Part shown: positions 1 through 23,609 of the stretch, piece after piece
Layout: each line of letters begins with the position of its first letter
Position numbering within the stretch: position 1 is the stretch's first letter
IMG/VR virus record: IMGVR_UViG_2700989400_000006
Coordinates: 1 to 25,248 of that record
DNA length: 25,248 nucleotides
Source: a virus
Lineage: Duplodnaviria; Heunggongvirae; Uroviricota; Caudoviricetes
Reading direction: 5' to 3' (one strand)
Translations under genes and position numbers: made by a program
The notes under the pieces: model-generated
The model's input: only the letters and a program-made list of their open reading frames with translations
Databases searched by the model: none
What the model was told of the DNA's origin: nothing

Positions 1-1344
1 TGCACCATTCCGGCGGGTATAGGTTTTATTGATGGCCTCATCCACACGCAGCAGCGTCTGTTCATCGTCGTGGCGACCCATAATAATCTGCCGGTCAATC
101 AGCCAACTTTCCTCACCCGGCCCCCATCCCCATACGCGCATTTCGTAGCGGTCCAGCTGGGAGTCGATACCGGCGGTCAGGTAAGCCACACGGTCAGGAA
201 CGGGCGCTGAATAATGCTCTTTCCGCTCTGCCATCACTTCAGCATCCGGACGTTCGCCAATTTTCGCCTCCCACGTCTCACCGAGCGTGGTGTTTACGAA
301 GGTTTTACGTTTTCCCGTATCCCCTTTCGTTTTCATCCAGTCTTTGACAATCTGCACCCAAGTGGTGAACGGGCTGTACGCCGTCCAGATGTGAAAGGTC
401 ACGCTGTCCGGCGGCTCAATCTCTTCACCGGATGACGAAAACCAGAGAATGCCATCACGGGTCCAGATCCCGGTCTTTTCGCAGATATAACGGGCATCAG
501 TAAAGTCCAGCTCCTGCTGACGGATGACGCAGGCATTATGCTCGCAGAGATAAAACACGCTGGAGGGATCATCCGGCGTCCATTTGAGGCCAAACGGCGT
601 CTCTTTATCGCCAAATTTAAGGTACTGCTCCTCCCCGCAGTGCGGGCAGGCAACATGAAAACGCATAAAATGCGGGGATTCACTGGCTGCACGCTCAATC
701 TGGCAGGTGCCTCTCACTTTGGGGGTGGAGCCACGGATGGACTTTGGCCAGACCGAGCCTTCAATACGTTTGTCGCCAAGGAACGTCGGAGAGCCTTCCT
801 GTTCAATATCCTCATCAAAGGCAGCAAGTTCATCATAACCCGCCACATCCACCGACTTTTCACGGTAGTTTTTTGCCGCTTTACCGCCCAGGCACCAGAA
901 GCCACGACCATTGGAAAAACGCTTCATGGTGAGCGTGTTATCCCGGTGCTTTTTGCCATACCACGGAGCCAGCGCCAGCAGCAACGGAATATCGCGGATG
1001 GTCGGCTCAACGTGGGTTTTCATAAAGTTCTCGGCATCACCATCCGTCGGCAACCAGATAAGTGTGTTGCGCTGCTTATGCTCTATGAAGTAGGCATAAA
1101 CACCCAACAGCATTTTGGAATAACCAACACGGGCAGACTTCACCACATTCACCTCGCGGATGTAGTCGCTGCCCATCGCATTCATGATGGCCCGCTGAAA
1201 GGGCAGTGTTTCCCAGCGCCCTTCCTGGTATGCGGATTCTTTCGGGAGATAGTAATTAGCATCCGCCCATTCAACGGGGGTCATTGGCAATGGTCTTTTC
1301 AGGACTGAGAGACCCGCCTTCACTGCCAATACGAAATTATTCAT
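1..1344 (-). CDS. Terminase large subunit (lambda gpA-like), N-terminal 448 codons; 3' end runs off the window start
   Basis: Reverse-strand frame opens with ATG at 1344-1342 and is open to position 1. Translation (MNNFVLAVKAGLSVLKRPLPMTPVEWADANYYLPKESAYQEGRWETLPFQRAIMNAMGSDYIREVNVVKSARVGYSKML...NKTYTRRNGA) matches my recollection of lambda gpA almost residue for residue after the first ~20 aa. Missing from the ORF track because no stop lies in the window. The listed plus ORF 538..1308 is its antisense shadow. Confidence 0.9.
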   Translation of the reverse strand, partial: MNNFVLAVKAGLSVLKRPLPMTPVEWADANYYLPKESAYQEGRWETLPFQRAIMNAMGSDYIREVNVVKSARVGYSKMLLGVYAYFIEHKQRNTLIWLPTDGDAENFMKTHVEPTIRDIPLLLALAPWYGKKHRDNTLTMKRFSNGRGFWCLGGKAAKNYREKSVDVAGYDELAAFDEDIEQEGSPTFLGDKRIEGSVWPKSIRGSTPKVRGTCQIERAASESPHFMRFHVACPHCGEEQYLKFGDKETPFGLKWTPDDPSSVFYLCEHNACVIRQQELDFTDARYICEKTGIWTRDGILWFSSSGEEIEPPDSVTFHIWTAYSPFTTWVQIVKDWMKTKGDTGKRKTFVNTTLGETWEAKIGERPDAEVMAERKEHYSAPVPDRVAYLTAGIDSQLDRYEMRVWGWGPGEESWLIDRQIIMGRHDDEQTLLRVDEAINKTYTRRNGA

Positions 1345-1867
1345 CTGTATTTCTGTAATACTCATCCGCAAATTCCTTCATTTTTTCAGCGGACTCAACG
1401 CATTTATTAGCCCCCTTCGCAACCAGCTCTTTTAGATAAGCCAATTGTCTGCCTGTCAATTCAGGGAATTTTCTTTGCATCGAAAGCGGAATACTGTCCA
1501 AAACAGATGCCAGTTCTCCGGATAACCGGGACAGGGCAAAAATAGAGAAAGCTGTATCAATCACCTTATGCTCTGCAACCTGGTTTTTTAACCGCTGAGC
1601 AATAGCCTGTTCTTCCGTCAGGTTAACCCTGGCCTGAAGTAGCCTTTCCTCAAGATCATTTTCACCACCTGAAGATTTCTGGTTTTGTTGACGTCGCTCG
1701 CGATCTATCTCCAGTACAGTTTTAACGTCATAGAAAACCTCTCTCCCCCGGCGCTCAACAGGAGGAACACCCCATTTATCAAATGCCTGTACTGAGATAC
1801 CGATGGAGGAGGCCATGTCGCTTTTATTCAATAAAAAGGCCACAGCCCCTCCATAAACCACCGGCAA
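1337..1867 (-). CDS. Terminase small subunit (Nu1-like)
   Basis: 176-aa ORF immediately downstream of cos on the phage strand, stop overlapping the large-subunit ATG (ATGA). C-terminal two thirds (VIDTAFSIFALSRLSGELASVLDSIPLSMQRKFPELTG) resemble lambda Nu1 (VVETAFCTFVLSRIAGEIASILDGLPLSVQRRFPELEN); N-terminus looks like the Nu1 winged-HTH. Exact start codon uncertain. Confidence 0.7.
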   Translation of the reverse strand: MPVVYGGAVAFLLNKSDMASSIGISVQAFDKWGVPPVERRGREVFYDVKTVLEIDRERRQQNQKSSGGENDLEERLLQARVNLTEEQAIAQRLKNQVAEHKVIDTAFSIFALSRLSGELASVLDSIPLSMQRKFPELTGRQLAYLKELVAKGANKCVESAEKMKEFADEYYRNTDE

Positions 1868-2048
1868 AAAAGCAATACAACAACCACGTTTTTTGTAAAA
1901 CCCTCTGATTTTACATGCTTTTTCGTATAAGAAAGATCATCAGGTTGTTGTGTTTATTTTTCTTTCTTATTACTTATCAAGTAGATATATCAAACGATAA
2001 AACAACAACCATCACCTCAAAAAAACTCGTAAATAGCGAAAACCCGCG

Positions 2049-2060
2049 AGGTCGCCGCCC
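2049..2060 (-). other. cosN cohesive-end sequence (12-nt, lambda-type) within a cos region spanning roughly 1868-2110
   Basis: Plus strand 2021-2060 is the reverse complement of GGGCGGCGACCTCGCGGGTTTTCGCTATTT, which I recall as the left end of the lambda genome; 2049-2060 = AGGTCGCCGCCC is the complement of the 12-nt cohesive end. The flank at 2061-2100 (CGGATCACCGGAAAGGACCCG) resembles the lambda right-end/cosQ side. Confidence 0.8.
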
Positions 2061-2236
2061 CGTAGCCTGCCGGATCACCGGAAAGGACCCGCAAAACCGA
2101 GAATAAGTATCAATACTATTTGTGATTTGAATGATGCACATCATTGAAACGCCATTCATCCATATACCAGCAGCAGTCGGTGTTGCACTTCGTAACTCTG
2201 TGACTACGGTTATAAAAGCATTGGCAACTTTTGCCA

Positions 2237-2274
2237 CCGGCAAGTCTTCAATGGATTTCCCCTGCCGGTTTTTT
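2237..2274 (+). terminator. Hairpin followed by T-run (CCGGCA...TGCCGG then TTTTTTATTTT)
   Basis: 6-bp stem with a ~20-nt loop followed by T6; seen on the plus strand only. Confidence 0.35.
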
Positions 2275-2370
2275 ATTTTCGTCGATGCATAACATTGCAT
2301 TTACATCAATAGCAGCTATTGTCATTAGTATGTTGCATCGATGCATGGGTGGTATTGGCGGTCTTCGCCG

Positions 2371-2405
2371 ACCGGTTCTGTGTAGCTCCCTATGACCGGT
2401 TTTTT
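2371..2405 (+). terminator. Hairpin followed by T-run (ACCGGT...ACCGGT then TTTTTATTT)
   Basis: Two copies of the palindromic hexamer ACCGGT separated by 18 nt, followed by T5; the CCGGTTTTTTATTT unit is a direct repeat of 2262-2276. Confidence 0.35.
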
Positions 2406-2620
2406 ATTTCTAAGATTACAGAAGCCCTTCACTGTATGAAGGGCTTATGTAACTCTTCTTACTTAGTAATTTTCGCACCTTCCGGTATTTCCATGAGTTG
2501 AGAAAACCTCATACTATCCGACAATAATCATCAATATACGATAAAGACATCTGACCAGATTGCAGTATTAAAAGCACTCATGCAGACTACGCCCCTCATA
2601 TCATATACAAGGGGATACTG

Positions 2621-3031
2621 ATGGCTCAGGTTGCCATTTTTAAAGAAATATTTGATCAAGTGCGGAAAGATTTAAACTGTGACCGGTTTTACTCTGAACT
2701 AAAACGCCACAATGTCTCACATTACATTTACTATTTAGCCACAGGTAATATTCACATTGTATTTGAGAGCGATAACACGGTGTTAATAAAAGGTTTCCAT
2801 GATGTTATTCATGTTAGCTTTTGCAGAGACACGCGACTTATAGAAACTTACCTTCATAAGTTGAAATCAAGAGAAATCACATTTCATGAATACAGGGTAA
2901 ATCTGGCTAAAGCTGGAGTTTTCCGATGGGTTACAAATATCCACGAACACAAAAGATATTACTATACCTTTGACAACTCATTATTGTTTACCGAAAGCAT
3001 CCAGAACACGACTCAAATTTTTCCACGCTAA
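2621..3031 (+). CDS. Hypothetical moron protein, YbcV-like (DUF1398-type as I recall)
   Basis: 136-aa ORF on the strand opposite the late genes, AT-rich, located between cos and bor as ybcV is in E. coli DLP12 (from memory). Confidence 0.5.
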
Positions 3032-3255
3032 ACCATAACGTCCGGTTTGATCCGCCTCAGTAGCCGGCACTCCCACACAGGAGTTACCAGTCGGTGCTGT
3101 GGCCATAGTTAATCTGGGTATACAGTAAAGATACAGCACATCTGGCATACTTTAATAAACATTAACAATATGAGATTTCAACTCATTGTTTAGGTTTTGT
3201 TTAAATTTCCACAAATACGATGCACCAAACTTAAAAACACAACGGGAATCACACG

Positions 3256-3549
3256 ATGAAAAAAACGCTACTCACTTTCACACTGGCGCTGCTTATCTCT
3301 GGATGTGCTCAACAGACGTTTACAGTTGAAAACAAACCTACAACAGTAACACCGAAGGAAACCATCACTCATCATTTCTTCGTTTCAGGAATTGGTCAGA
3401 AGAAAACTGTCGATGCAGCCAAAATTTGTGGTGGCGCAGATAAAGTTGTTAAAACTGAAACCCAGCAAACATTCGTAAATGGATTGCTCGGTTTTATTAC
3501 TTTAGGCATTTATACTCCGCTTGAAGCTCGGGTCTATTGCTCACAATAA
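3256..3549 (+). CDS. bor: Bor lipoprotein (serum-resistance, Iss family)
   Basis: 97-aa ORF MKKTLLTFTLALLISGCAQQTFTVENKP...ITLGIYTPLEARVYCSQ with lipobox LISGC; near-identical to my recollection of lambda Bor; transcribed opposite to the late operon as in lambda. Confidence 0.9.
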   Translation: MKKTLLTFTLALLISGCAQQTFTVENKPTTVTPKETITHHFFVSGIGQKKTVDAAKICGGADKVVKTETQQTFVNGLLGFITLGIYTPLEARVYCSQ

Positions 3550-3558
3550 TTACATGCG

Positions 3559-3586
3559 CTGCCCATCAATATGGGCAGTTTTATTT
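3559..3586 (+). terminator. Intrinsic terminator downstream of bor
   Basis: Perfect 8-bp stem CTGCCCAT/ATGGGCAG with 4-nt loop CAAT followed by TTTTATTT, 10 nt after the bor stop. Confidence 0.65.
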
Positions 3587-3631
3587 ACACTGTTAACCCC
3601 TTGGTTGTTTCAGCCGCCGGGGTTTTACTTG

Positions 3632-3880
3632 TTATTCACTGGTATGAGTACGACATCTGGCCATTTCATTCCGGGCTTTACTGTCGCCGCGACAGATGCA
3701 ACGCATCGTATCGCCGTTCAGCGTAGTGATATAAGCCTCATCCGTTTTCTCTACCTGCAAACATGAAATATTCCCGTTCCGGCAATACTCAATTTTTGCT
3801 GCCAGATGGGTATTACGCGGGTAAAACTCCATACGATACATATCCCCCCAGGACATGCACTTCCTCAACCTGACGACCAT
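3632..3880 (-). CDS. Hypothetical protein (82 aa) downstream of the endolysin; coding status uncertain
   Basis: ORF from the track; no transmembrane segment or lipobox, so not a recognisable spanin. An alternative 33-codon ORF (3813-3914) with a GGAGG Shine-Dalgarno overlaps in another frame. Confidence 0.3.
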   Translation of the reverse strand: MVVRLRKCMSWGDMYRMEFYPRNTHLAAKIEYCRNGNISCLQVEKTDEAYITTLNGDTMRCICRGDSKARNEMARCRTHTSE

Positions 3881-3946
3881 CTTCAGTTACCGTAATCTTT
3901 TTCAGTGCGTACATACGTACCTCCGTTCTTTCGTTTTTTGAACAAT

Positions 3947-3967
3947 AAAAAAGCCACCGAAGTGACC
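3947..3967 (-). terminator. Putative intrinsic terminator after the endolysin gene (minus strand)
   Basis: Minus-strand RNA would read GGUCAC-UUCG-GUGGCU (6-bp stem with two G.U pairs, UUCG tetraloop) followed by UUUUUUAUU. The same stem on the plus strand would carry A-C mismatches, so it is strand-specific. Confidence 0.45.
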
Positions 3968-3979
3968 TTTTCGATGAGT

Positions 3980-4534
3980 TTATAAACCAACGCGCTCTTT
4001 CATCCAGCCATAGACAAACGACTCGTTAGCCTCGCGTTTCTCGGCCAGCGCCAGATAACGCTCACCCTGCGTACAGTTCAGGGCTTTCACCAGTACCAGT
4101 TCGCCATCCCTGCCGCGATTTTTCAGATAAGAACGTAACGCATTAATGGTTCGCGGCCCGATCCCCCCGTCTGTAACTATGTCCGGATACAGCATTCCCT
4201 TCTGATTAAACACATTCAGCCAGCGCTGAAGCATTTTTGTGGCTACCGACGGCCCCATGTTTACCCCGGTATCACACAGTTCTGCAGCAATATCAGGAGA
4301 CAGGTTTGCCACCTGGTCAAAACGAGGTCCATACCAATAGTCTGCCTCAAGGATTTCCAGAGCCTGCCCGCGGCTCAAATCACGCATATCACCACGGTAA
4401 CCATGCGCGCGCGCCACTTTTTCAGTAATTCCCCACTTCGTCGCTCCGCCTGTATCGTCAGGATGACTGACATACCCCCCCTCTTTTCCGAGGATTTCAT
4501 CAAAAATTTCATCTCTCGATTTCATATCAGCCAC
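3980..4534 (-). CDS. Endolysin, glycoside hydrolase family 108-like with C-terminal peptidoglycan-binding domain
   Basis: 184-aa ORF; N-terminal motif EILGKEGGYVSHPDDTGGATKWGIT is the GH108 signature as I recall it; no N-terminal hydrophobic (SAR) segment; start overlaps the stop of the upstream membrane-protein gene. Confidence 0.8.
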   Translation of the reverse strand: MADMKSRDEIFDEILGKEGGYVSHPDDTGGATKWGITEKVARAHGYRGDMRDLSRGQALEILEADYWYGPRFDQVANLSPDIAAELCDTGVNMGPSVATKMLQRWLNVFNQKGMLYPDIVTDGGIGPRTINALRSYLKNRGRDGELVLVKALNCTQGERYLALAEKREANESFVYGWMKERVGL

Positions 4535-4805
4535 TCAGGAAAGCAAAAATTTTTGAAACATTACCGCGCGCACGCACTACCATGACACCAAACACCAGGT
4601 TCAGCATCACTACCAGCCAGTCTGCCGGCAACGGATGACCACAGAGATAACTTAACGGCGTTATCGCATACAACAGCATCAGACACCAGGCGCACCACGA
4701 TATCAGCGGTTTGTGTCGGGACTCTTTTCTGCGGTAGAAAAAAAGCGTCAGTACGATAACCGTACATAACGCCGCATTCAGTAATCCTGGAAGATTATTT
4801 GTCAT
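4527..4805 (-). CDS. Lysis-cassette membrane protein (holin/antiholin-like)
   Basis: Start chosen at ATG 4805 (MTNNLPGLLNAALCTVIVLTLFFYRRK...) preceded by GGAGGAGG; the track start 4823 is GTG. Two to three predicted hydrophobic helices; 8-nt overlap with the endolysin start. Confidence 0.5.
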   Translation of the reverse strand: MTNNLPGLLNAALCTVIVLTLFFYRRKESRHKPLISWCAWCLMLLYAITPLSYLCGHPLPADWLVVMLNLVFGVMVVRARGNVSKIFAFLSG

Positions 4806-5187
4806 TACCACCACCTCCTCCACGCTGACGGGAGAACAGACCGGATACCAGTGATGTAATCTCCTGCTGGTGGATGAATGACAGGACTTTTACTGAGAGC
4901 ACCGACACCAGGACCGCACACAACGCATCAACGGAAGCACTGTTAAACCCAATACGTTCCGCCATGTAACCGGCCACACCACGGGCCCCAAGCACACCAA
5001 CAATAAAGGACACCAGAAAATGTGCAGCCACACGCCAGGCTGAAAGTGTCTGCGGCATTGTTGCCACAAATAACGCACCAGCGAACGCACCAAATACAAT
5101 CCCGAAATCCGTCCCGGTAAACAGCCCGAATACCGTCGCCCCGCCGAGCGCCACAGCAGTGCCGGAACCGGATAAGGGTTCAGACAT
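4795..5187 (-). CDS. Holin-like membrane protein (Gly/Ala-rich, ~131 aa)
   Basis: Start chosen at ATG 5187 (MSEPLSGSG...) with AGGAGA 6 nt upstream rather than the track start 5217; several Gly/Ala-rich hydrophobic segments; sits at the head of the endolysin module. Confidence 0.55.
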   Translation of the reverse strand: MSEPLSGSGTAVALGGATVFGLFTGTDFGIVFGAFAGALFVATMPQTLSAWRVAAHFLVSFIVGVLGARGVAGYMAERIGFNSASVDALCAVLVSVLSVKVLSFIHQQEITSLVSGLFSRQRGGGGGNDK

Positions 5188-5272
5188 ATTTATTCTCCTG
5201 TAAATAAAAAGGACCATCAGCGGCCCTAAAAAACTTTATCAAAGGTACCCGCAGATACCTTTTGTAGGCTGT

Positions 5273-5425
5273 TTATTCAGATTTGCGAAGTAAAGGCCAG
5301 AGTAAGACCGTTACCATCGCCACCAGCACACCATCAGCCAGTACCGACATCAGCCATCCAGTGAAATCCACTGCCACTACCAGAAACAACAGGATGGCAG
5401 CCAGCACAAGGCCCGCACTTTTCAC
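5273..5425 (-). CDS. Small hydrophobic peptide (50 aa), possible membrane peptide of the lysis module
   Basis: GTG start overlapping the TGA stop of the TerB-like gene (GTGA); translation VKSAGLVLAAILLFLVVAVDFTGWLMSVLADGVLVAMVTVLLWPLLRKSE is almost entirely hydrophobic. Below the ORF-track size cut-off. Confidence 0.3.
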   Translation of the reverse strand: MKSAGLVLAAILLFLVVAVDFTGWLMSVLADGVLVAMVTVLLWPLLRKSE

Positions 5426-5847
5426 AGATACTGCTCCAGTGGTAACTGAAGCGCCTGTGCAATTTTCTTGAGCTGCGCTTCTTCATCCGGACCAATGCCA
5501 TCCTGATCAGCGATATCCAGACAGAGGCAAAGCACGTCAACCGCCTCAGTTGTCCCCGCCACATCAGCCAGCTCACGCAATGCATGCGCATTCGCACTAC
5601 GCGGTGACGCTTCATAACGGGCGCGGATATTGGCGCTCATCTGGGCAATCTCACCAGAGAACGGTGCAAAAGCAGGAAGCGCAGCAATAGTTTTCTCCAG
5701 TACTGCGATTTCTTTCGCATCGCAGGTGCCGTCGGCATATGCAATGGAATATGCGCCCCAGACGGTCGCCTCCACCGCATCACGGTTCTCCATCTTCTTC
5801 ACTTCTGTGATGGCCTTGCGGGTTTTCTTTTTGAAAATACCTAACAT
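5422..5847 (-). CDS. TerB-like (tellurite-resistance TerB fold) protein
   Basis: 141-aa ORF; C-terminal DIADQDGIGPDEEAQLKKIAQALQLP resembles the acidic helix motif of TerB-family proteins as I recall them. Confidence 0.55.
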   Translation of the reverse strand: MLGIFKKKTRKAITEVKKMENRDAVEATVWGAYSIAYADGTCDAKEIAVLEKTIAALPAFAPFSGEIAQMSANIRARYEASPRSANAHALRELADVAGTTEAVDVLCLCLDIADQDGIGPDEEAQLKKIAQALQLPLEQYL

Positions 5848-5981
5848 CGTGACTTTTCCTTTGCGTAGACGAGCCTGCGCCAGATGGTTACCAGTCCACA
5901 GTGAAAGTCACACTGACAATCCCGTAAGCACCTCCTGAAAGGCTCTGTGTTTTTGATGTGCGCCAGGTGTGGCTCAGATAC

Positions 5982-6005
5982 AAAAAAAGCTCGCCGTAGC
6001 GAGCT
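5982..6005 (-). terminator. Intrinsic terminator (minus strand) after the 92-aa gene
   Basis: Minus-strand RNA: AGCUCGC-UACG-GCGAGCU (perfect 7-bp stem) followed by UUUUUU; 24 nt downstream of the stop at 6029. Confidence 0.6.
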
Positions 6006-21137: not shown

Positions 21138-23609
21138 ATGAGTAAAGTCTTTATTTGCGCCGCCATTCCGGACGAACAGGCAATAAAGGAAGAAGGTGCA
21201 GTCGCTGTAGCCACTGCCATTGAAGCCGGCGACGAACGCCGCGCCCGAGCCAAATTTACCTGGCAATTCCTGGAGCAATATCCGGCTGCTCAGGACTGCG
21301 CTTATAAATTTCTTGTCTGCGAGGATAAACCCGGCATGCCCCGCCCTGCCATCGACTCCTGGGATACCGAATATATGCTGGAAAACCGCTGGGATGAGGA
21401 AGGCGCTTCCTTTGTCCCGGTCGAACCAGAATCCGATCCGATGAACGTCAATTTTGACAAGCTGTCCCCTGAAGTACAGAACGCGGTCCTGGTTAAGTTC
21501 GACACATGTGAAAACATCACCGTTGATATGGTTATTAGCGCACAGGAATTGTTGCAGGAAGACATGGCAACATTCGACGGACATATCGTTGAAGCGTTGA
21601 TGAAAATGCCAGAAGTTAACGCCATGTATCCGGAGCTTAAGTTGCACGCCATTGGGTGGGTTAAGCATAAATGTATTCCTGGTGCTAAATGGCCCGAAAT
21701 TCAGGCAGAGATGCGCATCTGGAAAAAACGTCGCGAAGGTGAACGCAAGGAAACCGGAAAATACACGTCTGTTGTTGATCTCGCCCGCGCCAGAGCCAAT
21801 CAACAGTACACTGACAATTCAACAGGAAAAATCAGCCCGGTCATTGCTGCCACTCATCGCGAATACAAGCAGACATGGAAAACACTGGATGACGAACTGG
21901 CCTACGCTCTCTGGCCTGGTGATGTGGATGCCGGAAACATTGACGGCAGCATCCATCGCTGGGCAAAAAATGAAGTTATCGACAACGACCGCGAAGACTG
22001 GAAGCGTATCTCGGCATCAATGCGCAAACAGCCTGATGCCCTTCGCTACGACCGCCAGACTATTTTTGGCCTTGTCCGTGAACGTCCGATCGACATTCAC
22101 AAAGACCCTGTGACACTGAACAAATACATTACTGAATACCTGACTACAAAGGGCGTGTTTGAAGATGAAGGAAGAAATCAGAGCGCAACTGATACTCTCT
22201 CGTCGCCAGTACCAGAAACTGATGCAGTGGAAACGGCAATTCCGGACAACGAAAAAACCGAATGCAAAGTGGAAGTCGAACCATCTGTAGAGCGTGAGGG
22301 GCCGTTCTACTTCCTCTTCACCGACAAGGATGGCGAAAAATATGGTCGCGCAAACAAACTTTCTGGTCTGAATAAGGCGCTGACTGCAGGGGCTACTGAA
22401 ATCACGAAAGAAGAATATTTTGCCCGTAAAAACGGTACATACTCAGGTTCACAACAAAATACTGGTGCATCTGACACGACCGCACAACCAGAGCCGGTAA
22501 AAGTTACCGCTGACGAAGTAAACAAAATTATGCAGGCAGCCAATATCAGCCAGCCTGACGCCGATAAGTTGCTTGCTGTATCACGTGGTGAATTTGTTGC
22601 AGGGATTAGCGACCCGAATGATCCGAAATGGGTGAAGGGGATTGAAACCCGCGATTCAGTGAATCAGAACCAGCAAGAAACGGAACAGAACGACCAGAAA
22701 GCAGAACAAAACAGCCCAAATGCGTTACAAAACGAGCCAGAAACGAAACAACCTGAGCCAGTAGCGCAACAGGAAGCGGAAAAAGTCTGCACCGCATGCG
22801 GTCAGACCGGCGGCGGCAACTGCCCTGATTGTGGTGCGGTGATGGGCGACGCAACATACCAGGAAACATTCGATGAAGAGAATCAGGTTGAAGTTCAGGA
22901 AAATGATCCGGAGGAAATGGAAGGCGCTGAACATCCACACAAGGAGAATGCTGGCAGCGCTCAGGACCACGCCAGCAATAATGAAACTGGCGAGACGGCA
23001 GATCCCTTAATTGCGGTGAACGGTCATCACGTTATCACATCCACCAGCAGGACGTGTGACCATCTAATGATCGACCTTGAAACCATGGGAAAAAATCCTG
23101 ATGCCCCGATTATCTCAATAGGTGCAATATTTTTCGATCCGCAAACCGGAGATATGGGACCGGAATTTAGTAAGACTATCGATCTGGAAACTGCTGGCGG
23201 AGTCATTGATCGGGACACCATTAAATGGTGGCTTAAGCAATCACGCGAAGCGCAATCTGCCATTATGACCGATGAAATCCCGTTAGATGATGCACTGTTA
23301 CAATTGCGGGAATTTATCGACGAAAACTCCGGTGAATTTTTTGTTCAGGTCTGGGGAAATGGAGCCAACTTCGACAACACGATTTTGCGCCGTTCATACG
23401 AACGGCAGGGGATCCCCTGCCCGTGGCGTTACTACAACGATCGCGATGTACGCACAATCGTTGAGCTGGGGAAAGCCATAGACTTCGATGCCAGAACGGC
23501 TATTCCATTCGAAGGTGAGCGCCATAATGCACTTGATGACGCCCGTTACCAGGCAAAATACGTTTCAGTTATCTGGCAAAAACTGATCCCGAGTCAGGCT
23601 GATTCTTAA
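21138..23609 (+). CDS. Large phage exonuclease (823 aa) with central CxxC-CxxC zinc ribbon and C-terminal DEDDh-type 3'-5' exonuclease domain
   Basis: C-terminal motifs MIDLETMG (Exo I), WGNGANFDNTIL (Exo II) and HNALDDARYQAKY (Exo III, His type); central CTACGQTGGGNCPDCG; acidic/Gln-rich linker before it. The antisense ORF 21111..21803 is rejected. Confidence 0.75.
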   Translation: MSKVFICAAIPDEQAIKEEGAVAVATAIEAGDERRARAKFTWQFLEQYPAAQDCAYKFLVCEDKPGMPRPAIDSWDTEYMLENRWDEEGASFVPVEPESDPMNVNFDKLSPEVQNAVLVKFDTCENITVDMVISAQELLQEDMATFDGHIVEALMKMPEVNAMYPELKLHAIGWVKHKCIPGAKWPEIQAEMRIWKKRREGERKETGKYTSVVDLARARANQQYTDNSTGKISPVIAATHREYKQTWKTLDDELAYALWPGDVDAGNIDGSIHRWAKNEVIDNDREDWKRISASMRKQPDALRYDRQTIFGLVRERPIDIHKDPVTLNKYITEYLTTKGVFEDEGRNQSATDTLSSPVPETDAVETAIPDNEKTECKVEVEPSVEREGPFYFLFTDKDGEKYGRANKLSGLNKALTAGATEITKEEYFARKNGTYSGSQQNTGASDTTAQPEPVKVTADEVNKIMQAANISQPDADKLLAVSRGEFVAGISDPNDPKWVKGIETRDSVNQNQQETEQNDQKAEQNSPNALQNEPETKQPEPVAQQEAEKVCTACGQTGGGNCPDCGAVMGDATYQETFDEENQVEVQENDPEEMEGAEHPHKENAGSAQDHASNNETGETADPLIAVNGHHVITSTSRTCDHLMIDLETMGKNPDAPIISIGAIFFDPQTGDMGPEFSKTIDLETAGGVIDRDTIKWWLKQSREAQSAIMTDEIPLDDALLQLREFIDENSGEFFVQVWGNGANFDNTILRRSYERQGIPCPWRYYNDRDVRTIVELGKAIDFDARTAIPFEGERHNALDDARYQAKYVSVIWQKLIPSQADS

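Follow-up and report, generated by a model that had tools for sequence, protein, structure and literature searches.

The window, the whole 25,248-nucleotide stretch of DNA analyzed here, contains the late region from an almost complete lambda-like E. coli prophage, and its lysis cassette consists of two genes of holin families and a gene for a soluble muramidase, with no recognizable spanin gene after them. The best explanation, to which we assign a probability of roughly 0.7, is that a lysis cassette of the phiP27/Rac-SA53 type lost its spanins through a recombination joint, with cargo now occupying their slot. Such mosaicism is ordinary among phages and does not amount to a new lysis mechanism. 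An earlier note on this DNA had likewise recognized no spanin in the cassette and had left three options, namely, that an upstream membrane protein supplies the function, that an unrecognized gene does so, or that the function is absent. The last is the best supported of the three; absence is demonstrable only for recognizable kinds of spanin.

Lysis genes and the moron upstream of them

The features of the cassette and its flanks, in the order of late transcription, are as follows.

5988..6005, minus strand: terminator-like hairpin upstream of the TerB/TciB pair (7-bp stem with 5 G-C pairs, then a T run)
5422..5847, minus strand: TerB/TciA-like gene, a moron (141 aa; PF05099 TerB, E 4e-7; phrog_632, E 3e-65)
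5273..5425, minus strand: DUF3927/TciB-like peptide (50 aa; PF13064, E 1e-13; phrog_1470, E 8e-22)
5210..5227, minus strand: terminator-like hairpin separating the TciB-like gene from holin 1
4795..5187, minus strand: holin 1, Phage_holin_8 family (130 aa, 3-4 hydrophobic segments; PF16931, phrog_198)
4527..4805, minus strand: holin 2, Phage_holin_3_7 family (92 aa, 3 transmembrane domains [TMDs]; PF05449, phrog_217)
3980..4525, minus strand: soluble endolysin, GH108 plus PG_binding_3 (181 aa; PF05838, PF09374)
3954..3977, minus strand: terminator-like hairpin directly 3' of the endolysin stop codon
3632..3914, minus strand: frameshifted 93-aa gene, phrog_33497 (the 33-codon and 82-aa ORFs of the earlier note combined)
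3844..3849, minus strand: G6 homopolymer run causing the frameshift (G5 in intact copies; alignment with locus L007)
1337..1843, minus strand: terminase small subunit (terS), the next late gene and the far end of the possible spanin interval (RefSeq annotation of the 99.9%-identical L001)

The real lysis genes are those of the Phage_holin_8 protein, the Phage_holin_3_7 protein, and the soluble GH108/PG_binding_3 muramidase. The earlier note had counted three membrane proteins in the cassette and had left their families to an HMM search; all three ORFs exist, but two of them belong there, and both of these, which lie directly upstream of the endolysin, match holin models. The first, which had been described as a 131-aa membrane protein, is indeed present on the minus strand with 130 or 131 codons and matches PF16931 at an E value of 3e-22 (79.5 bits; cut-off, 26.4) and the holin family phrog_198 at 2e-39; its RefSeq product name is "putative holin." Its ATG at 5187, preceded by AGGAGAA, comes after the hairpin at 5210..5227. 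Holin 2 matches PF05449 (E 4e-21; 75.2 bits; cut-off, 25.4) and the holin family phrog_217 (E 2e-35). Counted from an upstream GTG, it has 98 aa, and hydropathy places the TMDs of this longer ORF at about 13-29, 39-60, and 67-83. It shares 11 nt with the end of holin 1, and the holin genes abut the endolysin; the overlap with the endolysin start that had been reported for this protein (then given as 93 aa) holds only if the endolysin begins at the GTG at 4534, but with the ATG at 4525 chosen by RefSeq, there is a gap of 1 nt. With a family match, multiple TMDs, and a position beside the endolysin, both proteins are predicted holins, and it is from position and family name that we infer timed formation of holes in the inner membrane. 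A literature search found no experimental paper on Phage_holin_8 or Phage_holin_3_7, and to our knowledge neither family has been tested for hole formation.

The endolysin was correctly assigned to the GH108 type: its catalytic domain matches PF05838 (Glyco_hydro_108) at 2e-25 (89.6 bits; cut-off, 21.2), and its second domain matches PF09374 (PG_binding_3) at 1e-24 (87 bits; cut-off, 24.6). Neither a signal nor a SAR segment was found in it. The protein aligns end to end with Sen1395 of Salmonella (PDB 6v3z; E 4e-103, residues 2-179), a solved and active endolysin to which it is ~85% identical, and matches PDB 6v40 at 2e-83. Sen1395 is an active muramidase (PMC6996933), and roughly 85% identity makes the same activity probable for the window endolysin. 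The hairpin that follows the stop codon is kept in L007, where, as read from the alignment, two substitutions change G-U pairs to G-C; the GGAGG and ATG of the next gene come after it.

The third membrane protein of the earlier description, a 50-aa hydrophobic peptide, exists as an ORF (5273-5425) with two hydrophobic segments by hydropathy, but the lysis role proposed for it does not hold, given its match to DUF3927 and phrog_1470. Its start overlaps the stop of the TerB gene by 4 nt (ATGA), and it is the translationally coupled partner of the TerB/TciA-like gene, whose phrog_632 match denotes tellurite resistance and whose RefSeq product is a TerB family protein. Because of this coupling and the terminator-like hairpins on both flanks, the pair is a moron rather than a part of the lysis cassette. 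The order of a TerB protein followed by a DUF3927 peptide with two TMDs is that of a TciA/TciB-type moron like the tci locus of P1.

Between the two cassette alleles that occur in a spanin-less context, dN/dS for the holins and the endolysin is 0.06 to 0.13, a signal that may date back to spanin-bearing ancestors. These values indicate that the lysis genes are not decaying and that two diverged alleles of the cassette are under purifying selection. They also bear on the idea that the prophage is a decaying, noninducible remnant in which the missing spanin is one lesion of several and has no bearing on lysis. The frameshift in the 93-aa gene, to which an insertion is added in L011, would fit that idea, as would the side-tail-fiber gene, which is a pseudogene. 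The side-tail-fiber gene is, however, the only such case among the lambda-like genes, as those for head, tail, terminase, holin, and endolysin are all annotated as intact in RefSeq, and in strain Ceylon31, the 93-aa gene is intact beside the same joint; together with the low dN/dS, this makes a remnant quite unlikely. Laboratory lambda (PaPa) likewise has a defective side-tail-fiber gene. The insertion site of the prophage in a 99.9%-identical genome is ydfJ, which we take to be the Qin site.

The gene after the endolysin and the search for a spanin

Downstream of the endolysin, the earlier note had reported an 82-aa ORF and an alternative 33-codon ORF, neither with a transmembrane segment or lipobox. 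Lipobox and TMD scans confirmed the lack of both, but the two ORFs are halves of one split gene rather than alternatives, because both match phrog_33497, a family of 95 positions, the 33-aa ORF (3813-3914) at positions 1-25 and the 82-aa ORF (3632-3880) at positions 22-94. One additional G (G5 to G6) breaks the frame; RefSeq lists the 93-aa gene as a pseudogene ("frameshifted"), and intact homologues occur in L007 and L063. Since eight other assemblies (L001, L002, and L009-L014) have the same G6 and Ceylon31 combines the joint with an intact gene, the alignments indicate that the frameshift is real and later than the joint. In L011, the gene also has an insertion of ~2.1 kb, and L014 breaks off there as well, close to where its contig ends. 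A programmed frameshift at G6 was considered unlikely, as intact homologues have G5 and one carrier also has the insertion.

The AlphaFold model of the 93-aa protein (pLDDT, 85.5) is a soluble fold of seven strands and one helix, with no structural neighbor at an E value of 0.1 or better in the PDB or BFVD, and the protein has no Pfam match. The product is roughly neutral, beta rich, and soluble, and its homologues fall into 26 clusters, of which all those with a named source come from Enterobacterales. A zinc finger was rejected, as only one Cys is invariant. A role as a lysis factor was rejected as well, the gene being a pseudogene here and its product being without a Pfam match or structural neighbor.

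The scans for spanins covered all ORFs of at least 20 aa, from every start codon, on both strands of the whole window, and used regular expressions and hydropathy on the translated ORFs as filters for strict and relaxed lipoboxes and for N-terminal TMDs. No o-spanin (signal peptide plus lipobox Cys) was found in the whole window. The sole lipobox ORF in the 25 kb is Bor, which was rejected as an o-spanin substitute because it lies on the strand opposite to the late genes and coexists with Rz/Rz1 in lambda. For an i-spanin, the minus strand from the endolysin to terS offers no ORF with a TMD at its N terminus; the only embedded candidates, at 4890-5099 and 5334-5615, are out of frame inside holin 1 and TerB and have no lipoprotein partner, and the first has no PHROG match. 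A unimolecular spanin of the T1 gp11 type was likewise not found, as no lipobox ORF occurs anywhere on the late strand. A spanin hidden in other frames was therefore rejected, with Bor and a few spurious out-of-frame ORFs as the only yield; a search for embedded lipoprotein ORFs in all frames, of the kind that the earlier note had proposed for 3590-3980, gave none on the late strand, and no Rz/Rz1 pair emerged.

Homology searches agreed. PHROG and Pfam scans of the ORFs in the interval gave no convincing spanin-family match. In tblastn (word size, 2; E up to 100), eleven queries were used, comprising seven spanin proteins of four kinds (lambda, epsilon15, mEp390, and YpM41) and four small P27-type membrane protein or lipoprotein candidates; nothing among the matches listed was convincing, the best (E 0.005) falling at 21927-22007 in an unrelated 823-aa ORF. 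The RefSeq annotation of the whole prophage (NZ_CP038859.1, a 99.9%-identical genome) names no lysis or spanin gene beyond the holins and the endolysin. The earlier finding that the cassette has no recognizable spanin thus survived all of these searches. As positive controls, the spanin pair of the Yersinia phage vB_YpM_41 scored phrog_1026 and phrog_1275 at about 1e-32, the pair of a Salmonella prophage matched phrog_214 and phrog_3001 plus PF23793 (LysC), and the lipobox filter picked out the lipoproteins, known or candidate, of vB_YpM_41, phiP27, the Salmonella prophage, and the plasmid pMS21199B, four in all. The ORF at 2981-3148 has a weak match (E 0.002) to phrog_6954, labeled "Rz-like spanin." It was rejected: the phrog_6954 member in phage phi296 shows neither a TMD nor a lipobox, and the similarity does not extend beyond a conserved stretch of DNA upstream of bor, which takes in the position of the annotated HK630 bor promoter. 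The family is probably mislabeled. In principle, type I membrane proteins, inner-membrane lipoproteins, and outer-membrane proteins could also be spanin parts (Kongari et al., PMC6139136).

That the absence is an artifact of sequencing, assembly, or ORF calling is hardly credible. Homopolymer runs are error prone, and o-spanins are frequently missing from annotation (PMC6139136), as in pMS21199B; however, the sequence, including G6, is identical in the eight other assemblies, and the scans took every ORF and start codon independently of existing annotation.

The mosaic joint and spanin-bearing relatives

To the left of the 93-aa gene, the following features come next.

3595..3624, no strand assigned: hairpin ending the P27-like module, with the joint just to its left
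3581..3592, minus strand: Rz remnant, the last three codons plus stop, lambda-type (alignment to HK630)
3558..3579, plus strand: bor terminator hairpin (9-bp stem, then a T run)
3256..3549, plus strand: Bor outer-membrane lipoprotein (PF06291, E 2e-30; phrog_260, E 6e-56)
2621..3031, plus strand: DUF1398 (YdfO/YbcV-like) gene of the lambda/DLP12-type bor module (PF07166, E 1e-42; RefSeq DUF1398 family protein)

At about 3593/3594, the P27-like lysis module gives way to a lambda-type bor module. Homology to L007 stops at this point and homology to lambda-type phages starts there, with a megablast limit of 3592, and phage matches to window positions 3200-3592 end within annotated Rz genes. Of Rz, just the final 12 nt are left, reading CAG TGT AAA TAA compared with CAG TGC AGA TAG in lambda, and the joint would therefore have removed the lambda-type Rz/Rz1. 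These homologies indicate that the spanins were lost by mosaic recombination and that the joint, which the earlier note had missed, is the cause of their absence. At least 13 E. coli genomes share the spanin-less layout. When viral contigs were searched with a single protein, only near-identical loci were returned.

The same order of Phage_holin_8, Phage_holin_3_7, and GH108 genes is found in vB_YpM_41, whose endolysin is 81% identical, and in ~48-kb E. coli plasmids such as pMS21199B. There, in contrast to the window, a 92-aa i-spanin overlaps the endolysin stop and is itself overlapped with a 69-aa o-spanin with the lipobox LIASC (phrog_1026 and phrog_1275), so that the slot which holds a terminator and a moron in the window holds a spanin pair. 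The o-spanin of pMS21199B was left unannotated. Spanins lie directly downstream of the endolysin in 85 E. coli genomes, the best among the matches listed being the ~48-kb plasmids, and a Salmonella prophage with an 84%-identical endolysin also has an i-/o-spanin pair directly downstream. The ancestral state was thus probably one with spanins directly after the endolysin. In the more distant mEp390 and epsilon15, the same two holin families adjoin canonical spanins, and in CharmingMan, a TerB/TciB pair upstream of the cassette and a Phage_holin_3_7-type holin stand beside a canonical spanin. Because of these neighbors, neither the holins nor TerB/TciB are spanin replacements in those phages, and a spanin function for an upstream membrane protein is disfavored.

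The reading of loss by recombination is as follows. The full cassettes carry an overlapped i-/o-spanin pair after the endolysin, whereas the E. coli chromosomal lineage has a terminator and cargo in that slot, the cargo being the 93-aa soluble protein (now a pseudogene) here and LT-II toxin genes or an MscS-type mechanosensitive channel gene elsewhere. In this prophage, the cargo segment is joined to a lambda/DLP12-type bor-DUF1398 segment with its 12 nt of Rz, and the joint also left out a 51-aa lipoprotein kept further downstream in some P27-like relatives. If the cassette works like canonical holin-endolysin systems, its holins would permeabilize the inner membrane at a programmed moment and so let out the cytoplasmic muramidase to degrade the murein; the third step, disruption of the outer membrane, would have no dedicated gene. 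Lysis may consequently end with fragile spherical cells, to be completed only by shear, by low divalent cations, or by spanins from a co-induced lambdoid prophage.

Recurrence in at least 13 genomes and the two selected alleles count against plain loss, in that they hint that the phage copes well without spanins; an unrecognized factor could also explain them. Such a factor might be a noncanonical disruptor of the outer membrane in or near the cassette (a holin, the TciB-like peptide, the 93-aa protein, or a cationic peptide like phiKT gp28) that completes lysis without spanins. The same recurrence and selective maintenance would fit it, and no spanin can be identified in ~13% of the phages that infect Gram-negative hosts, for which alternative routes have been proposed (PMC6139136). 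We nevertheless regard a disruptor as improbable, since the holin families and TerB/TciB adjoin canonical spanins in the relatives above and the 93-aa gene is broken here and in L011, its product being of a neutral, soluble kind. A scan by charge and hydrophobic moment for disruptins of the phiKT gp28 kind, a group without a family model, gave no free-standing candidate in 207 late-strand ORF/start combinations between 1867 and 10100; the only candidate was a 47-aa ORF (5637-5780; net charge, +12) out of frame inside TerB. Short cationic peptides with an ATG and a Shine-Dalgarno sequence on the late strand were limited to the holin itself and one out-of-frame ORF in TerB.

Spanin function could also be supplied in trans by Rz/Rz1 of lambdoid or cryptic prophages co-induced by the SOS response, which would make the loss phenotypically silent and is compatible with loss by recombination. 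Lambda-type bor segments, which adjoin Rz in phage records, are present in 3690 of 5426 E. coli genomes; 2 to 5 matching places occur in each of the carrier genomes. Cryptic-prophage spanins are, however, usually silent unless their own Q-dependent late transcription operates, and supply in trans is accordingly held to be unlikely. About as unlikely is a broader proposal, that the chromosomal E. coli P27-like lineage (this prophage, phiP27, the LT-II phages, and relatives) lyses efficiently without a canonical spanin through an unrecognized outer-membrane route. In some members, the 51-aa lipoprotein with tiny membrane partners may provide such a route; a property of the holin pair may be another. 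If so, the freed slot after the endolysin would have become a hot spot for cargo (LT-II toxins, the MscS-type channel, and the 93-aa protein).

Comparison with other lysis systems

The closest systems are the Stx2e phage phiP27 and the LT-II prophages Rac-SA53 and SerU-LTIIb, which share the adjacent overlapping holins (holin 2 is 67 to 75% identical), also have no Rz-like spanin after the endolysin, and carry cargo genes in that slot. The LT-II phages share the GH108 endolysin as well (83 to 89% identical) and have toxin genes where the window has the 93-aa pseudogene followed by the lambda-type bor module. phiP27 differs in its unrelated 127-aa endolysin, a putative peptidase-M15-like protein as read from its sequence, and keeps the 51-aa lipoprotein that is absent from the window. 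Kongari et al. named this lipoprotein the o-spanin of phiP27 (PMC6139136); the i-spanin call for the same phage is doubtful. In the phiP27 type, small TMD proteins of PHROGs 7528, 4493/1115, and 4906 accompany the lipoprotein. This call, the unannotated o-spanins of pMS21199B, and phrog_6954 are flagged here as annotation problems. Since the same spanin-less cassette releases LT-II enterotoxins and sits in phiP27, the need for spanins bears on how toxins leave the cell.

With the lambda arrangement S-R-Rz/Rz1-bor (also the rzp-rzo-bor-ybcV arrangement of the DLP12/Qin type), the window shares homology at 87% across bor, its terminator, the intergenic spacer, and the final 12 nt of Rz, and bor is oriented the same way with respect to the late operon. 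Unrelated genes stand in the window in place of S, R, Rz, and Rz1; what remains is three codons and the stop of Rz. Sen1395 and TtsA (PDB 6v3z and 6v40) have the same two-domain layout of GH108 plus PG_binding_3 as the window endolysin. TtsA serves the nonlytic export of typhoid toxin, whereas the window gene belongs to a phage late operon, behind two holins. The four substrate-groove residues of the window protein (V117, G121, E165, and N167) match neither the set of Sen1395 (D/R/E/D) nor that of TtsA (I/Q/Q/N).

Like the spanin-less phages of Kongari et al. [quoted passage not shown] Those phages mostly have other hosts or are large virulent phages, whereas the window comes from a lambdoid coliphage with spanin-bearing near relatives, and it is these relatives that make the loss traceable to a specific recombination joint. 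The cassette would be a clean case of a lambdoid phage losing the third lysis step by module exchange, with the joint mapped to within a few bases, the stump of Rz visible, and spanin-bearing sister cassettes available for comparison, and it offers a genetically tractable E. coli system for the experiment that Kongari et al. proposed on spanin-less phages.

Organization of the lysis cassette

The cassette lies on the minus strand and is built around a three-gene holin-holin-muramidase unit. All of its family assignments passed curated Pfam cut-offs and had strong PHROG matches, and RefSeq makes identical gene calls on an E. coli chromosome with 99.9% identity.

Elements of the lysis region, in the direction of late transcription
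6005-5988, minus: terminator-like hairpin, the first element
5847-5422, minus: TerB-family gene (Pfam and PHROG)
5425-5273, minus: DUF3927/TciB-like two-TMD peptide, 50 aa; start overlaps the TerB stop
5227-5210, minus: second terminator-like hairpin, between the TciB-like and Phage_holin_8 genes
5187-4795, minus: Phage_holin_8 gene (Pfam and PHROG)
4805-4527, minus: Phage_holin_3_7 gene; 11-nt overlap with the Phage_holin_8 gene
4525-3980, minus: GH108 plus PG_binding_3 endolysin (Pfam and PHROG)
3977-3954, minus: third hairpin, followed by a GGAGG Shine-Dalgarno motif
3914-3632, minus: 93-codon gene, after the GGAGG motif

The earlier note had counted the 50-aa peptide as a member of the lysis cassette. 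It is instead the partner of TerB, in a pair that is bracketed by terminator-like hairpins and matches PHROG families labelled tellurite resistance and TciB-like, and on sequence grounds it is not a lysis protein. Phage CharmingMan likewise carries a TerB/TciB pair upstream of a cassette, there with an annotated spanin. Out of frame inside TerB is a 47-aa amphipathic open reading frame (5637-5780, minus; net charge, +12) with an ATG start and a Shine-Dalgarno-like motif, which is the sole cationic-peptide candidate on the late strand and is probably spurious.

The GH108 identification of the endolysin held. The protein aligns end to end with Sen1395 (PDB 6v3z; E value, 4e-103; roughly 85% identity) and with 6v40. 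Sen1395 hydrolyzes ordinary peptidoglycan, and its overexpression halts growth (PMC6996933). At groove residues 117/121/165/167, which are proposed determinants of substrate specificity, the window endolysin has V/G/E/N, Sen1395 has D/R/E/D, and TtsA has I/Q/Q/N; the window set is mostly uncharged, like that of TtsA, which is specific for LD-crosslinked peptidoglycan. In the endolysins of loci L005 and L007, positions 117 and 121 are D and R. A GH108 homolog with 56% identity in Pseudescherichia vulneris (L026 1112-4561), with no phage genes nearby, sits beside a 702-aa chitinase-like protein and a small regulator-like gene, a layout reminiscent of holin/endolysin-dependent chitinase secretion loci.

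Search for a spanin

The earlier description of a cassette with no recognizable spanin was borne out by lipobox, N-terminal-TMD, tblastn, and PHROG scans and by the prophage annotation. Open reading frames of at least 20 aa were enumerated from every ATG, GTG, or TTG start on both strands. The lipobox filter, applied strictly to 1800-6000 and in relaxed form to the whole window, returned only Bor, on the opposite strand, and thus no embedded lipoprotein in any late-strand frame, including the 3590-3980 region that the note had proposed to search. No late-strand frame between the endolysin and terS had an N-terminal TMD, and tblastn with the lambda, epsilon15, mEp390, and vB_YpM_41 spanins and P27-type candidates gave nothing convincing among the matches listed. 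As positive controls, the vB_YpM_41 and Salmonella spanin pairs scored 1e-24 to 1e-37 against PHROG spanin families and were recovered by the lipobox filter. In the rest of the prophage, read from a near-identical genome, the head and tail module contained no lysis gene. Judged from sequence, a spanin is missing from the window, as every test run indicates.

Among the remaining small frames, a PHROG scan gave one weak match, to phrog_6954 "Rz-like spanin" (2981-3148, minus). It was rejected, as the phi296 member (L065 604-849) has neither a TMD nor a lipobox and lies partly over a conserved stretch upstream of bor; the family name probably reflects a misannotation that has been propagated. An unannotated frame of ~107 aa upstream of terS (1977-2300, minus; L005 1138-1470) is conserved between prophages, had no PHROG match, and may be conserved noncoding DNA, e.g., a cos or packaging region.

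The recombination joint and the frameshifted 93-aa gene

P27-like homology spans the 93-aa gene and its hairpin and ends at ~3594. Leftward of 3592 the sequence is lambda type: it keeps the final 12 nt of Rz (CAG TGT AAA TAA) and continues with the bor terminator, bor, and DUF1398. Therefore, the joint excluded both the lambda Rz/Rz1 pair and the P27-type lipoprotein. The prophage (NZ_CP038859.1 1693440-1716500) is inserted in ydfJ, the Qin site, and its lambda-like head and tail gene set is complete, with only the side-tail-fiber gene marked as a pseudogene.

Downstream of the endolysin, the earlier note had reported an 82-aa frame and an alternative 33-codon frame, neither with a TMD or lipobox; the latter observation stands, whereas the two frames are one broken gene. 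In a PHROG search, the 33-aa frame matched positions 1 to 25 of phrog_33497 and the 82-aa frame matched positions 22 to 94. The G run at 3844-3849 is G6 in the window and in eight other assemblies versus G5 in the intact 93-aa homolog of E. coli locus L007, and the gene carries a frameshift flag in RefSeq. An intact 93-aa gene occurs in the same neighborhood in strain Ceylon31; therefore, the frameshift is younger than the gene arrangement. In assembly L011, a ~2.1-kb insertion lies inside the already frameshifted gene at about window position 3704 (L011 6105/8229), and L014 ends at that point (L014 6105), near its contig end.

The 93-aa family is a small one of 26 clusters. Wherever a source is named, it belongs to Enterobacterales; all named clusters are called hypothetical, and none of the 26 has a Pfam domain. 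A confident model (pLDDT, 85.5) combines seven strands with a helix at the C terminus; neither PDB nor BFVD contained a meaningful structural neighbor. The protein lacks both a TMD and a signal peptide, is close to neutral in charge, and resembles neither a spanin nor a disruptin.

The window and Ceylon31 share an identical bor, and their 93-aa proteins, once the window copy is repaired, differ at one residue; the holins and endolysin differ at 6 to 13% of nucleotides, with dN/dS of 0.06 to 0.13. Thus, two lysis-gene alleles circulate on the same spanin-less backbone, both kept intact, which argues against simple decay; dN/dS does not date the selection.

Predicted lysis without a spanin, and related cassettes

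Without shear, and with the outer membrane stabilized by divalent cations, lambda spanin mutants become rounded and lyse poorly. In the window, Q-dependent late transcription would read through the three hairpins. The endolysin has no N-terminal hydrophobic segment by hydropathy and therefore should need holin-made holes to reach the wall; the holins would open the inner membrane and the muramidase would destroy the wall. With no spanin, the outer membrane would then have to give way passively, unless Rz/Rz1 of a resident prophage induced at the same time opened it. The spanin absence is real, has an explanation, and is of modest interest. Its particular feature is that the loss can be traced to a recombination joint where a stump of Rz remains, on which we found no paper.

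In chromosomal E. coli lambdoid prophages, cargo occupies the position directly after the endolysin: LT-IIa and LT-IIb toxin genes in Rac-SA53 and SerU-LTIIb and a mechanosensitive (MscS-type) channel gene in ETEC1730. In phiP27, D217-5, and bR_120, small genes are found there and only a 51-aa lipoprotein is kept, 0.5 to 0.9 kb downstream. This lipoprotein belongs to phrog_7528, has a mature part of 30 aa, and is conserved across loci L004 (phiP27), L005, L007, L015, and L024; its gene segment has matches in 340 E. coli genomes. Kongari et al. (PMC6139136) list a TTG-start 64-aa frame as the phiP27 i-spanin (L004 2257-2451, minus). That call looks doubtful because the frame has no PHROG match and is antisense to a 90-aa frame (L004 2195-2467, plus) matching phrog_36812 (E value, 5e-20). 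In some relatives, small membrane proteins (L005 2511-2866, L007 2783-2956) belonging to phrog_4493/1115 (C-terminal TMD) and phrog_4906 (44 aa) lie just upstream of the lipoprotein and could be its partners.

The holin8, holin3_7, GH108 order recurs in Yersinia phage vB_YpM_41, whose endolysin is 81% identical. Unlike the window, this phage has a 92-aa i-spanin overlapping the endolysin stop, followed by an overlapped 69-aa o-spanin. Its lysis segment matches ~48-kb E. coli plasmids at 99.9% identity (L064 2821-3223 in plasmid pMS21199B; L019 3820-4222) and is contiguous in 85 E. coli genomes; the pMS21199B annotation calls the i-spanin hypothetical and omits the overlapped o-spanin. A Salmonella prophage, with an endolysin 84% identical to that of the window, has an overlapped LysB/LysC-like pair. 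A Salmonella prophage region (L022) is nearly matched, in endolysin and o-spanin, by a contig labelled Vagococcus sp. WN89Y (L021), a Gram-positive genus, likely through contamination or mislabelling. The more distant phages mEp390 and epsilon15 share the holin pair, and in both the endolysin is immediately followed by spanins. The window cassette is a member of this known type and an instance of a known absence, as no spanin could be identified in ~13% of phages infecting Gram-negative hosts (PMC6139136).
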